NCBI RefSeq assembly: GCF_003790525.1
Contig: NZ_CP033635.1
Direction: 5' to 3' (one strand)
DNA length: 64,000 bases
Source: Escherichia coli
Lineage (GTDB): Bacteria; Pseudomonadota; Gammaproteobacteria; Enterobacterales; Enterobacteriaceae
In this document: positions 5,285 through 10,064 of the stretch, one piece after another
Layout: each line of letters starts with the position of its first letter
Numbering within the stretch: the first letter of the stretch is position 1
Position numbers and translations under genes: made by a program
Notes under the pieces: generated by a model
Told to the model about the DNA's origin: nothing
Databases searched by the model: none
Seen by the model: the letters and a program-made list of their open reading frames with translations, nothing else

Positions 5285-5752
5285 ATGATTAAACGCGTAT
5301 TGGTTGTTTCAATGGTAGGTCTGTCTCTTGTCGGTTGTGTTAATAACGACACCCTGTCAGGGGATGTTTATACCGCTTCTGAAGCGAAACAAGTACAGAA
5401 TGTCAGCTATGGCACCATCGTTAACGTACGTCCGGTACAGATTCAGGGCGGTGATGATTCCAACGTTATCGGCGCAATTGGCGGTGCTGTTCTTGGTGGT
5501 TTCCTGGGAAATACTGTTGGCGGCGGAACCGGGCGTTCTCTGGCTACTGCAGCAGGCGCTGTTGCAGGTGGCGTAGCCGGTCAGGGCGTACAGAGTGCAA
5601 TGAACAAAACGCAGGGTGTCGAGCTGGAAATTCGTAAAGACGATGGTAATACCATCATGGTGGTACAGAAACAAGGCAACACTCGTTTCTCTCCGGGCCA
5701 ACGTGTCGTACTGGCCAGCAATGGCAGTCAGGTGACCGTTTCCCCGCGCTAA
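5285..5752 (+). CDS. slyB: outer membrane lipoprotein SlyB
   Basis: 155 aa ORF with lipoprotein signal (LVGC) and glycine-zipper-rich body; recognised as SlyB. Confidence 0.93.
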   Translation: MIKRVLVVSMVGLSLVGCVNNDTLSGDVYTASEAKQVQNVSYGTIVNVRPVQIQGGDDSNVIGAIGGAVLGGFLGNTVGGGTGRSLATAAGAVAGGVAGQGVQSAMNKTQGVELEIRKDDGNTIMVVQKQGNTRFSPGQRVVLASNGSQVTVSPR

Positions 5753-5760
5753 ATAAGTTT

Positions 5761-5788
5761 GCGTGTGGTCAGGTTACTGACCACACGC
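5761..5788. terminator. bidirectional hairpin between convergent slyB and slyA
   Basis: perfect 12-bp stem gcgtgtggtcag / ctgaccacacgc with 4-nt loop, 9 nt after slyB stop and 11 nt before slyA stop. Confidence 0.65.
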
Positions 5789-5798
5789 CCCCTTCATT

Positions 5799-6233
5799 TC
5801 ACCCTTTGGCCTGTAACTCAATGATATTATGCTCAAGTTTTGCGATGAGCTTAATCAGTTGTTCCAGTTCCTCTGCGGAGATGCCATGTAAAATTTCCGC
5901 GCGGGTTTTGTTAATAACAGCTTCCATTTCGCTGATCAGTGGCTCTGCCTTTTCCGTCAGTTTAATACGTTTAGCCCGACGATCGCTGGCACAAGTTTGA
6001 CGCGAAATTAACCCTTTTTCTTCCAGTTGGTCCAGAGTACGGACCAGTGATGGCTGCTCGATGCCAATCGCTTTTGCCAGTTGAATTTGCGACTGGTCTG
6101 GAGGTAACTGATGGATATTGTGTAACGTAACCCAATGGGTTTGTGTTAACTCCAGCGGTTTCAGGCGATGGTCTATCAGAGCACGCCATATGCGCACCAA
6201 CCGTGCCAGATCAGAACCTAGTGGCGATTCCAA
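5799..6233 (-). CDS. slyA: MarR-family transcriptional regulator SlyA
   Basis: ORF 5799..6239 (146 aa from ATG); the 144-aa form I recall for K-12 SlyA ([12 protein letters not shown]...) would start at in-frame TTG 6233. Confidence 0.88.
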
Positions 6234-6249
6234 TTTCATCTCCTTATAA

Positions 6250-6261
6250 TTAGCTTGCTAA
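6250..6261. promoter_or_regulatory. SlyA-type palindrome TTAGCTTGCTAA just upstream of slyA
   Basis: 12-bp near-palindrome resembling the SlyA consensus TTAGCAAGCTAA, 11 bp upstream of the slyA ORF in the slyA/ydhI divergent region. Confidence 0.5.
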
Positions 6262-6433
6262 GATATTATGCGGCTTTTAGAATAGTGTGCAGCAATTGTA
6301 TTGCTAAAACAAATGTATTGCTGCATTTGGTTACCGTCAGACATATTTTTCAGAAATTGCGCGTAAATTTTTCGCACTTAAAGAATATTTATTAATCTAA
6401 CGCAATATATTCGGTCGTAAAGGAATCTACTTT

Positions 6434-6670
6434 GTGAAGTTTATGCTCAATGCAACAGGATTGCCCTTACAAGATCTGGTGTTCGGTGCGTCCGTCTACT
6501 TTCCTCCGTTTTTCAAAGCCTTCGCGTTTGGATTCGTCATCTGGCTTGTCGTACACCGCCTGCTTCGTGGCTGGATCTACGCTGGTGACATCTGGCATCC
6601 CTTGTTAATGGATTTATCGCTGTTTGCGATTTGCGTTTGCCTTGCCCTGGCAATACTGATTGCGTGGTAA
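6434..6670 (+). CDS. ydhI: small inner-membrane protein (DUF1656), partner of YdhJK
   Basis: 78 aa ORF from GTG 6434 ([25 protein letters not shown]...), two hydrophobic segments; recognised as YdhI. Confidence 0.85.
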
Positions 6671-6672
6671 CT

Positions 6673-7530
6673 ATGTCAATTAAAACAATTAAGTATTTCT
6701 CAACAATCATTGTAGCGGTAGTTGCGGTTCTTGCCGGATGGTGGCTGTGGAATTATTACATGCAATCTCCGTGGACACGCGACGGGAAAATACGCGCAGA
6801 ACAGGTTTCTATCACCCCTCAGGTGTCGGGACGTATTGTTGAGCTGAATATAAAAGACAACCAGCTGGTTAACGCGGGGGATCTTCTGCTCACGATCGAT
6901 AAAACGCCCTTTAAGATCGCCGAGCTGAACGCACAGGCTCAGCTGGCGAAAGCGCAATCTGACCTCGCAAAAGCCAATAACGAAGCGAATCGTCGTCGTC
7001 ATCTCTCACAAAATTTTATTTCTGCCGAAGAACTCGATACCGCTAACCTCAATGTTAAAGCGATGCAGGCCAGTGTTGATGCCGCACAGGCGACGCTGAA
7101 ACAGGCACAATGGCAACTGGCGCAAACGGAAATTCGCGCCCCGGTGAGTGGATGGGTGACTAACCTCACTACCCGCATCGGCGATTACGCTGACACAGGG
7201 AAACCGCTGTTTGCCCTTGTCGACAGCCACTCGTTTTACGTCATTGGTTATTTTGAAGAAACCAAGTTGCGCCATATCCGCGAAGGTGCACCAGCACAAA
7301 TTACCCTCTATAGTGATAACAAAACGTTACAGGGTCACGTTTCCAGTATCGGTCGGGCGATTTATGATCAGAGCGTTGAAAGTGACTCAAGCCTTATTCC
7401 GGATGTGAAACCTAACGTCCCCTGGGTTCGACTCGCCCAACGCGTTCCCGTCCGCTTTGCGCTGGATAAAGTCCCAGGCGATGTCACGCTGGTGTCGGGC
7501 ACCACCTGTAGCATTGCCGTAGGTCAATAA
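6673..7530 (+). CDS. ydhJ: HlyD/AaeA-like membrane fusion protein
   Basis: ORF 6631..7530; start placed at ATG 6673 ([18 protein letters not shown]...), 285 aa; N-terminal TM then coiled coil. Confidence 0.85.
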
Positions 7531-9542
7531 TGAACGCATCGTCATGGTCCTTGCGCAATTTGCCCTGGTTCAGGGCCACGCTGGCGCAATGGCGTTATGC
7601 GTTACGCAATACCATTGCCATGTGTCTGGCGCTGACGGTTGCCTATTATTTAAATCTGGATGAACCCTATTGGGCGATGACCTCGGCTGCCGTGGTTAGC
7701 TTTCCCACCGTGGGCGGTGTCATCAGCAAAAGCCTCGGACGCATCGCTGGCAGTTTGCTCGGAGCCATTGCGGCACTGCTTCTTGCCGGACATACACTTA
7801 ATGAGCCGTGGTTTTTTCTTTTGAGCATGGCGGCGTGGCTTGGCTTTTGTACCTGGGCCTGTGCGCACTTCACGAATAATGTCGCGTATGCATTTCAACT
7901 GGCGGGCTACACGGCTGCCATCATCGCCTTTCCGATGGTTAATATTACTGAGGCCAGCCAGCTGTGGGATATCGCTCAGGCGCGCGTTTGCGAGGTGATT
8001 GTCGGTATTTTGTGCGGCGGCATGATGATGATGATCCTGCCGAGCAATTCCGATGCTACAGCCCTTTTAACCGCATTGAAAAACATGCACGCCCGATTGC
8101 TGGAACATGCCAGTTTACTCTGGCAGCCTGAAACAACCGATGCCATTCGTGCAGCACATGAAGGGGTGATTGGGCAGATACTGACCATGAATTTGCTCCG
8201 TATCCAGGCTTTCTGGAGCCACTATCGTTTTCGCCAGCAAAACGCACGCCTTAATGCGCTGCTCCACCAGCAATTACGTATGACCAGTGTCATCTCCAGC
8301 CTGCGACGTATGTTGCTCAACTGGCCCTCACCGCCAGGTGCCACACGAGAAATTCTCGAACAGCTGCTGACGGCGCTCGCCAGTTCGCAAACAGATGTTT
8401 ACACCGTCGCACGTATTATCGCCCCGCTACGCCCGACCAACGTCGCCGACTATCGGCACGTCGCCTTCTGGCAGCGACTACGTTATTTTTGCCGACTTTA
8501 TCTGCAAAGTAGTCAGGAATTACATCGTCTGCAAAGCGGTGTAGATGATCATACCAGACTCCCACGGACATCCGGCCTGGCTCGTCATACCGATAACGCC
8601 GAAGCTATGTGGAGCGGGCTGCGTACATTTTGTACGTTGATGATGATTGGCACATGGAGTATTGCTTCGCAATGGGATGCCGGTGCCAATGCATTAACGC
8701 TGGCAGCGATTAGCTGCGTACTCTACTCCGCCGTCGCAGCTCCGTTTAAGTCGTTGTCACTGCTGATGCGTACGCTGGTGTTACTTTCGCTATTCAGCTT
8801 TGTGGTCAAATTTGGCCTGATGGTCCAGATTAGCGATCTGTGGCAATTTTTACTGTTTCTCTTTCCACTGCTGGCGACGATGCAGCTTCTTAAATTGCAG
8901 ATGCCCAAATTTGCCGCACTGTGGGGGCAACTGATTGTTTTTATGGGTTCGTTTATCGCTGTCACTAATCCCCCGGTGTATGATTTTGCTGATTTTCTTA
9001 ACGATAATCTGGCAAAAATCGTTGGCGTTGCGCTGGCGTGGTTAGCGTTCGCCATTCTGCGTCCAGGATCGGATGCTCGTAAAAGTCGCCGTCATATTCG
9101 CGCGCTGCGCCGGGATTTTGTCGATCAACTAAGCCGCCATCCATCACTGAGTGAAAGCGAATTTGAATCGCTCACTTATCATCACGTCAGTCAGTTGAGT
9201 AACAGCCAGGATGCGATGGCTCGCCGTTGGTTATTACGCTGGGGTGTAGTGCTGCTGAACTGTTCTCATGTTGTCTGGCAATTGCGCGACTGGGAATCGC
9301 GTTCCGATCCGTTATCGCGAGTACGGGATAACTGTATTTCACTGTTGCGCGGAGTGATGAGTGAGCGTGGCGTTCAGCAAAAATCACTGGCGGCCACACT
9401 TGAAGAATTACAGCGAATTTGCGACAGCCTTGCCCGTCATCATCAACCTGCCGCCCGTGAGCTGGCGGCAATTGTCTGGCGGCTGTACTGCTCGCTTTCG
9501 CAACTTGAGCAAGCACCGCCGCAAGGTACGCTGGCCTCTTAA
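7530..9542 (+). CDS. ydhK: FUSC/AaeB-family efflux permease
   Basis: 670 aa polytopic membrane ORF; start overlaps ydhJ stop; recognised as YdhK. Confidence 0.88.
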
Positions 9543-10064
9543 TTACTTAATTACACCACAGGCATAGCGTTCACCGCCACCGCCCAGCGGTTTAGGTTGA
9601 TCGGACATATTATCGCCGCCAACGTGGACCATCAGTGCTTTGTCTTTGACTTCATCCAGTGATTTCAGACGAGGCGCGATGACGGCATCGGTAGCTTTGC
9701 CGTCATTATTGACGACCAGTGCAGGCAGATCGCCTAAATGCCCGGCACCTTCTGGCCCTTCATGTTTACCGGTATTTTGTGGATCAAGATGCCCGCCTGC
9801 GGATTCCGCGGCGCTGGCTTTGCCATCTTTGGTGGCTGGCTGGCAGCTTCCTTTGGCATGAATATGGAAGCCATGTTCACCGGGGGGTAATGCTTTCAGG
9901 TCGGGCGAAAACTCCAGACCTTTATCGGTTTCAGTAATGGTGACGCTACCAATTGACTGCCCAACCCCTTGCGACGTGACGAGGTTCATCTCGACTTTTT
10001 CACTGGCAGCTTGTGCGCCGGTCGCAACAACCAGCGCCAGAATGGCCAGACTAAAACGTTTCAT
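9543..10064 (-). CDS. sodC: periplasmic Cu,Zn superoxide dismutase
   Basis: ORF 9543..10115; start placed at ATG 10064 with GGAGG RBS (MKRFSLAILALVVATGAQA...), 173 aa; Cu/Zn SOD histidine motifs. Confidence 0.92.
   Translation of the reverse strand: MKRFSLAILALVVATGAQAASEKVEMNLVTSQGVGQSIGSVTITETDKGLEFSPDLKALPPGEHGFHIHAKGSCQPATKDGKASAAESAGGHLDPQNTGKHEGPEGAGHLGDLPALVVNNDGKATDAVIAPRLKSLDEVKDKALMVHVGGDNMSDQPKPLGGGGERYACGVIK

Follow-up and report, generated by a model that had tools for sequence, protein, structure and literature searches.

A probably SlyA-controlled efflux operon of the aromatic-acid-exporter type: the described slyA–ydhIJK locus of Escherichia coli and its conserved spacer

The slyA–ydhIJK locus and its published behavior

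The closest described systems to the locus analyzed here are slyA–ydhIJK of Escherichia coli K-12 (b1642–b1645) and its orthologs in Salmonella (slyA–ydhIJK) and Klebsiella (kvrA–ydhIJK), in which a regulator gene diverges from a three-gene efflux operon. We analyzed this region in a 64,000-nucleotide stretch of E. coli contig NZ_CP033635.1 (the window), and the comparison reveals the same locus, with the same flanks, gene order, junctions and SlyA box, and with differences from K-12 at the level of strain alleles only. The feature is the E. coli slyA gene with its divergent ydhIJK efflux operon, which has been described before and is not new as a discovery. Very likely it is a SlyA-controlled pump operon of the aromatic-acid-exporter type that is derepressed by aromatic carboxylates. 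The window is 100% identical to the chromosome of E. coli SMS-3-5 (NC_010498.1), and the 5.2 kb surrounding slyA and ydhIJK are found in 5425 of 5426 complete E. coli genomes, each at 95% identity or more; the remainder of the window, gstA through ydiP, is ordinary E. coli core genome. Gene coordinates are those of the RefSeq annotation transferred onto window numbering and are given here with the two Shine-Dalgarno sequences of the spacer:

5799–6233, minus strand: slyA, 144-residue MarR-family regulator with a TTG start (RefSeq coding sequence)
6434–6670, plus strand: ydhI, 78-residue DUF1656 protein with a GTG start (RefSeq)
6673–7530, plus strand: ydhJ, 285-residue periplasmic adaptor (membrane fusion protein) anchored in the membrane at its N terminus (RefSeq)
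7530–9542, plus strand: ydhK, 670-residue inner-membrane transporter of the FUSC / aromatic-acid-exporter family (RefSeq)
6240–6245, minus strand: slyA Shine-Dalgarno AAGGAG, 6 nt ahead of the TTG and invariant in 86 aligned sequences (85 species loci and the window)
6420–6424, plus strand: ydhI Shine-Dalgarno AAGGA, 9 nt ahead of the GTG

Published experiments cover SlyA binding, expression and efflux. In Salmonella, SlyA represses ydhI approximately 19-fold and slyA approximately 5-fold in vitro, and 2 mM salicylate relieves this repression (Will et al., PMC6401476). In fusaric acid, growth of Salmonella ydhIJK mutants is delayed and that of slyA mutants improved (PMC6401476), and a later study confirmed ydhIJK repression in Salmonella by RNA-seq and noted the homology with AaeAB (Will et al. 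2025, PMC12506092). Mutants of kvrA, the Klebsiella slyA ortholog, exhibit a 45- to over 100-fold increase in YdhJ (bioRxiv 10.1101/845925). In K-12, Curran et al. observed that SlyA shifts a 200-bp slyA–ydhI fragment in an electrophoretic mobility shift assay (PMC5797941); the fragment is delimited by primers whose sequences begin TTTCATCTCCTTATAATTAGCTT and AAAGTAGATTCCTTTACGACC, corresponds to window positions ~6234–6433 and is 100% identical between K-12 and the window. The binding, expression and efflux experiments proposed in a first-pass annotation of this DNA have thus each been published in at least one enteric species. The same annotation had called the substrate unknown, which is half right: one exogenous class is known (fusaric acid, PMC6401476), while the 2025 study still states that the physiological function and natural substrate are undetermined (PMC12506092). 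The reported outcome differs between genera, with weak activation in E. coli and strong repression in Salmonella and Klebsiella.

These observations suggest a mechanism in which apo-SlyA, a dimer of MarR type, would occupy the slyA–ydhI spacer, above all a site here named box I (6250–6261), and so limit transcription of both slyA and ydhIJK. Aromatic carboxylates such as salicylate and benzoate would bind SlyA and cause its release, and the pump would then be made and would export aromatic carboxylates such as fusaric acid. E. coli would follow the same repression logic as Salmonella, with a promoter under box I control; how the pump is energized and which outer-membrane partner it would have are likewise matters of inference.

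The first-pass annotation placed slyA divergent from ydhI-ydhJ-ydhK with a 2-bp ydhI–ydhJ spacing and a ydhJ/ydhK overlap, and proposed paralogy with AaeXAB and a SlyA box; RefSeq, Pfam, BLAST-type comparison and a site scan bear out these gene identities, domains, operon structure, paralogy and box. Its extent of 5799–9545 is correct at the start and runs 3 nt too far at the end, where ydhK stops at 9542 and 9543–9545 is the stop codon of sodC. RefSeq strands agree with the divergent arrangement, and the slyA product matches the Pfam MarR profile PF01047 over residues 31–89 (61.5 bits, cut-off 24.6) and the NCBIfam SlyA equivalog NF002926 over residues 1–143 (278.9 bits, cut-off 120). The ydhI stop TAA (6668–6670) lies 2 nt before the ydhJ ATG at 6673, and the ydhJ stop TAA (7528–7530) overlaps the ydhK ATG (7530–7532) by 1 nt in the sequence TAATG. 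These junctions are tight in every species examined, from −4 to +10 nt for ydhI–ydhJ and from −4 to +12 nt for ydhJ–ydhK, consistent with a single translationally coupled ydhI-ydhJ-ydhK operon.

Both divergent genes begin with non-ATG codons, slyA with TTG (6233) and ydhI with GTG (6434–6436). The UUG start of slyA was noted previously (PMC5797941), and the ydhI GTG and 78-residue length are retained in most of 79 open reading frames recovered from other species. Two longer readings were rejected in favor of the RefSeq starts on the basis of proper Shine-Dalgarno spacing and conservation: a 146-residue slyA reading frame from ATG 6239, which directly abuts the Shine-Dalgarno AAGGAG (6245→6240) with zero spacer, and a 299-residue ydhJ reading frame from TTG 6631.

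SlyA box I and the slyA–ydhI spacer

The spacer contains the following candidate regulatory elements:

6250–6261, minus strand: SlyA box I, TTAGCTTGCTAA, whose reverse complement is exactly the published consensus TTAGCAAGCTAA
6296–6307, minus strand: SlyA-like site TTAGCAATACAA from the site scan, a 9/12 match that overlaps the proposed slyA −35
6389–6400, plus strand: second candidate SlyA site TTATTAATCTAA, a 9/12 match that fits TTAN6TAA, 34–45 nt upstream of the ydhI start
6278–6284, no strand assigned: TAGAATA, a putative shared symmetric −10 proposed from sequence, read as TAGAAT on the plus strand and TATTCT on the minus strand

The exact consensus TTAGCAAGCTAA has a single copy in the 64 kb and no copy in 100 shuffles. 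Looser motifs are not enriched across the window, neither TTAN6TAA (17 observed, 12.4 expected) nor the consensus with at most two mismatches (3 observed, 5.1 expected), and therefore only the exact box is statistically meaningful. The SlyA-type palindrome claimed at 6250–6261 is right in position and in identity with the consensus and is imperfect as a palindrome, with 5-nt arms TTAGC and GCTAA flanking a non-palindromic central TT. Box I sits at the slyA end of the spacer, 10 nt from the ATG of the longer slyA reading frame and with its center 22 nt from the TTG, and lies 172–183 nt upstream of the ydhI start. The site TTAGCAAGCTAA 22 bp upstream of slyA is a candidate PslyA site of PMC5797941, and with it on the minus strand this slyA carries, as is the mark of the SlyA family, an exact copy of the high-affinity consensus site upstream of its own gene (6250–6261).

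To compare species, GTDB species genomes were scanned with a DNA pattern for a SlyA peptide, yielding at least 120 Enterobacterales loci. Of the loci listed, 111 extend 500 bp or more upstream of slyA, and in 82 of these a divergent ydhI lies no more than 800 bp away. Loci lacking a linked ydhIJK include Photorhabdus, Pectobacterium, Dickeya, Brenneria, Edwardsiella, Yersinia pestis, Y. similis and some Erwinia and Pantoea, a scatter that agrees with the picture of repeated loss in PMC6401476. Box I matches the consensus at 10–12 of 12 positions, centered 22 nt upstream of the slyA start, in essentially all loci listed, linked or unlinked, and is weaker in Photorhabdus and Edwardsiella (9/12 or less). 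Its position is fixed irrespective of the presence of ydhIJK, and the box therefore travels with slyA. On this comparative evidence box I is first of all the operator of slyA itself, situated in the slyA leader.

Some individual loci in this set are of separate note. Three slyA loci from an uncultured Cedecea (L080), an Enterobacteriaceae metagenome-assembled genome (L089) and Klebsiella sp. BIGb0407 (L108) encode SlyA proteins with 77–81% identity, carry a variant box, TTAGTGAGCTAA, and have no ydhIJK; they look like a single distinct lineage, and the genus names in their records are inconsistent. Hafnia psychrotolerans (L099, 3435–3686) has a 40%-identity ydhI fragment beside an intact slyA, with no ydhJ or ydhK, and Pantoea sp. 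Eser (L119, 3391–3696) has a lone ydhK fragment beside an intact slyA. Both are decaying ydhIJK remnants and look like snapshots of the repeated pump loss described in PMC6401476.

Conservation divides the spacer into two halves. Across the 86 aligned sequences, 6234 to ~6320 is strongly conserved and ~6325–6418 is not; in the ydhI-proximal half only the ydhI Shine-Dalgarno and GTG are conserved. This profile matches the statement in PMC6401476 that ~100 bp have diverged, beginning ~95 bp from slyA. Within E. coli, 6225–6445 is base-for-base identical between the window and K-12 MG1655. The variable half holds the site at 6389–6400, which has been published as the candidate TTAGATTAATAA, 161 bp upstream of slyA (PMC5797941). 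Among species loci it occurs in E. coli and E. albertii only, and we rejected it as a conserved ydhI operator since it is confined to Escherichia. Related 9/12 sites at the same offset as 6296–6307 are found in E. albertii, Citrobacter amalonaticus and several Enterobacter and Phytobacter loci. In the Salmonella arizonae locus the sole 9/12 site besides box I is TTGGTAAGCAAA, 98 nt from slyA; it appears to fit the 75%-match site near the ydhI −35 of PMC6401476, although we could not confirm that the two are the same 12-mer. The E. coli counterpart of TTGGTAAGCAAA (6326–6337) matches at only 6 of 12 positions. Divergence in cis of such ydhI-proximal sites could plausibly underlie the opposing responses reported for E. 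coli and Salmonella.

The conserved half also contains promoter-like sequences on both strands. Toward ydhI, TTGCTA (6255–6260) and TAGAAT (6278–6283), separated by 17 nt on the plus strand, form the sole promoter-like match in 5700–6700, with the −35 inside box I. Toward slyA, inspection of the minus strand by eye identified TTAGCA (6307→6302) and TATTCT (6284→6279), again 17 nt apart; in other Enterobacteriaceae the slyA −35 reads TTGGCA, TTGAGA or TTGACA and the 17-nt spacing is kept. TAGAATA is common to both −10 hexamers and invariant in eight aligned Enterobacteriaceae, and TAnnnTA is present at the 6278–6284 offset in 85 of 117 sequences. Symmetric bidirectional promoters are said to have a TAnnnTA arrangement, reportedly described by Warman and colleagues in 2021, with −35 elements 16–18 nt away on both strands; TAGAATA has this form, with a candidate −35 at a spacing of 17 nt on each strand. 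Bidirectional promoters share a −10 element and most commonly have start sites 18 bp apart (PMC12825309); the supplements of PMC12825309 and PMC6401476 list no slyA or ydhI start sites.

These features raise the idea that the conserved 95 bp next to slyA are a shared bidirectional core promoter; together with a second idea, that YdhK is a fused ALMT-like anion channel and not a proton antiporter, we regard it as doubtful, in a judgment made on the pair jointly. In a shared core each −35 would lie within a SlyA-type site, box I toward ydhI and the 9/12 site at 6296–6307 toward slyA, and transcripts would be predicted to start at ~6290 on the plus strand and ~6272 on the minus strand, 18 bp apart and corresponding to K-12 positions 1,720,881 and 1,720,863. 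A single SlyA-occupied core would then set regulator and pump together, and the lineage-specific ydhI-proximal sites would be later additions that could account for the contrasting E. coli and Salmonella responses. TAnnnTA was also considered as a marker of ydhIJK linkage (76 of 86 linked sequences, 9 of 31 unlinked) and rejected, because its distribution follows phylogeny: TAnnnTA is absent from Yersinia and present in Pantoea, in linked and unlinked sequences alike. A separate block, AAAACAAATG (6306–6315), is 80–99% conserved in the 86 aligned sequences and largely retained in loci lacking ydhIJK. Its place is beyond the proposed slyA −35, where it might serve as an upstream promoter element or bind some other regulator.

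Pump proteins and rival readings

Pfam matches bear out each of the DUF1656, HlyD-type and FUSC assignments made in the first-pass annotation. YdhI matches DUF1656 (PF07869, 53.9 bits, cut-off 26.5) and has hydrophobic segments at residues 21–39 and 58–76. YdhJ matches HlyD_3 (64 bits), HlyD_D23 (63 bits) and the NCBIfam adaptor subfamily TIGR01730 (134.3 bits, cut-off 94.9). YdhK matches FUSC (PF04632) with 469 bits (cut-off 30.9), and its residues 20–661 cover profile positions 1–658 of 660. We modeled YdhJ with AlphaFold2 from an alignment of 38 orthologs and AaeA, and YdhK from 32 orthologs and AaeB. The YdhJ model has a predicted local distance difference test (pLDDT) score of 85 and comprises an anchor helix (3–31), lipoyl strands, hairpin helices 78–109 and 118–150 (~32 residues each) and a beta-barrel; its best PDB match by Foldseek is EmrA within EmrAB–TolC (E 1.8e-21). 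The YdhK model (pLDDT 81, predicted TM-score 0.73) has helical membrane bundles at ~18–169 and ~356–509, in agreement with hydropathy, each followed by a cytoplasmic helical domain.

A PDB sequence search with YdhK found no solved relative, the best match being ALMT12 (E 0.28), and we know of no FUSC transporter with a solved structure. Near the top of the list of structural matches to the YdhK model, the longest-aligning are ALMT1, ALMT9 and ALMT12, over ~310–400 residues at 12–17% identity and with weak Foldseek E values of 0.02–0.1. Comparison of the two YdhK halves by sequence gives a weak hhalign match (E 0.048 over 82 columns) and no significant BLASTP match, which is only suggestive of an internal duplication. 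TCDB files YdhK as 2.A.85.1.6, uncharacterised (PMC10971958). On these models YdhK would be an inner-membrane FUSC transporter with an ALMT-like fold, YdhJ an EmrA-like periplasmic adaptor anchored by its single N-terminal helix, and YdhI a small accessory protein crossing the membrane twice.

Several findings weigh against a pump operon that SlyA represses in E. coli. Expression of ydhIJK rises 2.2-fold when SlyA is overproduced from multicopy slyA, for which the authors propose divergent-promoter activation, and deletion of slyA in K-12 changed no transcript in chemostats (PMC5797941). A passage in PMC7417354, citing Corbett 2007, has slyA activating itself in E. coli; the salicylate-sensitive ydhI operator of Salmonella was placed at the 75%-match site near the ydhI −35 and not at the perfect box (PMC6401476); and the literature searched yielded no E. 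coli efflux phenotype for ydhJK. The Salmonella operator bears on the possibility that box I is the autoregulatory operator of slyA only, with control of ydhIJK falling to other sites that differ by lineage and lie in the variable half of the spacer. We give this reading serious weight, somewhat short of an even chance: box I keeps its position and at least 10/12 matches in most of the 29 listed loci truly without ydhIJK (Pectobacterium, Dickeya, Yersinia pestis, some Pantoea and Erwinia), and 6325–6418 is poorly conserved between genera. Yet YdhJ is strongly derepressed in Klebsiella, where the spacers of K. oxytoca and K. spallanzanii contain no other site of at least 9/12, and box I contains the −35 of the sole ydhI-strand promoter-like site, which is also the only such site that genera have in common. 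Rather unlikely, in our assessment, is that SlyA in E. coli activates ydhIJK or relieves its silencing instead of repressing it, as it could do by driving H-NS off the AT-rich spacer. The response to SlyA overproduction and the positive autoregulation speak for such a role, as do a spacer of only 34–37% G+C and the decay of the Salmonella-type 9/12 site to 6/12 in E. coli. The effect is small, however, and required multicopy slyA; Corbett 2007, by its title, has slyA expression independent of H-NS; SlyA orthologs strongly repress the orthologous operon in both Salmonella and Klebsiella; and in its conserved half the E. coli spacer hardly differs from the spacers of these genera.

Other findings tell against the transport side of the same proposal. 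The operon has no gene for an outer-membrane component, a review lists the outer-membrane partner of the paralog as "AaeAB-?" (PMC8277102), and the hairpins of YdhJ and AaeA are 46 residues shorter than that of EmrA. YdhJK, instead of a TolC-linked three-part pump, could be a channel-like anion exporter that the membrane potential drives and that carries aromatic carboxylates across the inner membrane only, with gating or stabilizing roles for YdhJ and YdhI. We consider this unlikely. All the domains of an adaptor (lipoyl, hairpin and barrel) are present in YdhJ, which is best matched by EmrA from a TolC complex, and its hairpin helices (32–33 residues) are presumably about as long as those of AcrA. 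Similarity of fold to a channel does not settle the mode of transport, and the Foldseek E values of 0.02–0.1 are weak. A SlyA-repressed, adaptor-linked exporter of aromatic carboxylates remains the reading we prefer.

The locus matters little as a discovery, since the literature already covers the locus itself, the regulator, its binding site, the AaeAB homology and a first substrate. It is a core-genome pump with real questions attached: its natural substrate, the direction of regulation in each genus, the promoter used, the role of the DUF1656 protein, whether FUSC pumps reach the outer membrane at all and whether YdhK works with TolC. The ALMT-like model of YdhK may offer a concrete, testable mechanism. 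What the present analysis adds is the fixed position of the box across species, uncoupled from ydhIJK; the variable ydhI-proximal half of the spacer; the candidate shared −10 TAGAATA; and the ALMT-like YdhK model.

Flanking genes and comparison with related systems

Both ends of the locus face convergent genes:

5285–5752, plus strand: slyB, convergent with slyA (RefSeq)
5761–5788, no strand assigned: GC-rich hairpin between the convergent slyB and slyA, 12 pairs of which 8 are G-C, with a T-rich tail on the minus strand
9543–10064, minus strand: sodC, convergent with ydhK (RefSeq)

The hairpin is probably a terminator shared by slyB and slyA. At the other end the ydhK stop TAA (9540–9542) abuts the minus-strand sodC stop (9543–9545) with zero spacer, which leaves no room for a terminator, and the transcripts must therefore overlap. 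The 12-mer TTAATTACTTAA across this junction (9539–9550) happens to match TTAN6TAA, the relaxed SlyA motif. Elsewhere in the window, ydhS (32538–34135) is annotated as a frameshifted pseudogene in SMS-3-5 (RefSeq record 1514130–1515727).

Among characterized pumps, the p-hydroxybenzoate efflux system AaeXAB shares the gene order of ydhIJK: a DUF1656 protein, a short anchored adaptor and a FUSC transporter. The paralogy proposed in the first-pass annotation is real by this shared order and by protein identities of 33% between YdhI and AaeX (E 1e-5), 40% between YdhJ and AaeA (E 2e-67) and 24% between YdhK and AaeB (E 8e-28). All three proteins score far below the NCBIfam equivalog cut-offs for AaeX (NF008615, 21.4 versus 82), AaeA (NF007850, 242.5 versus 400) and AaeB (NF007916, 120.2 versus 870), and the regulator is of MarR type; paralog and not ortholog is therefore the right word. 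In both systems the adaptor hairpin is shortened relative to EmrA, and both handle aromatic carboxylates according to the literature. They differ in their regulators, with the LysR-type AaeR at AaeXAB and the divergent MarR-type SlyA at ydhIJK, where no AaeR-type regulator adjoins the operon, and in their reported substrates, which are fusaric acid for ydhIJK and 4-hydroxybenzoate, 6-hydroxy-2-naphthoate and 2-hydroxycinnamate for AaeAB.

EmrRAB (MprA–EmrA–EmrB) resembles the locus in that a MarR-family regulator sensing aromatic carboxylates adjoins an efflux operon, and in its EmrA-like adaptor. In contrast to ydhIJK, with its FUSC transporter and divergent SlyA, EmrRAB has a major facilitator superfamily transporter and a co-transcribed regulator, and the YdhJ hairpin is the shorter by 46 residues. 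SlyA also controls a large counter-silencing regulon, unlike a local repressor of the EmrRAB type. The third likeness lies with the plant anion transporters ALMT1, ALMT9 and ALMT12/QUAC1, which are the best long-range structural matches of the YdhK model and, like the pump, carry organic anions. ALMT subunits form homodimers. Each subunit is approximately half the length of YdhK and works with no adaptor or small partner protein, whereas YdhK, as modeled, would contain two such halves in one chain.

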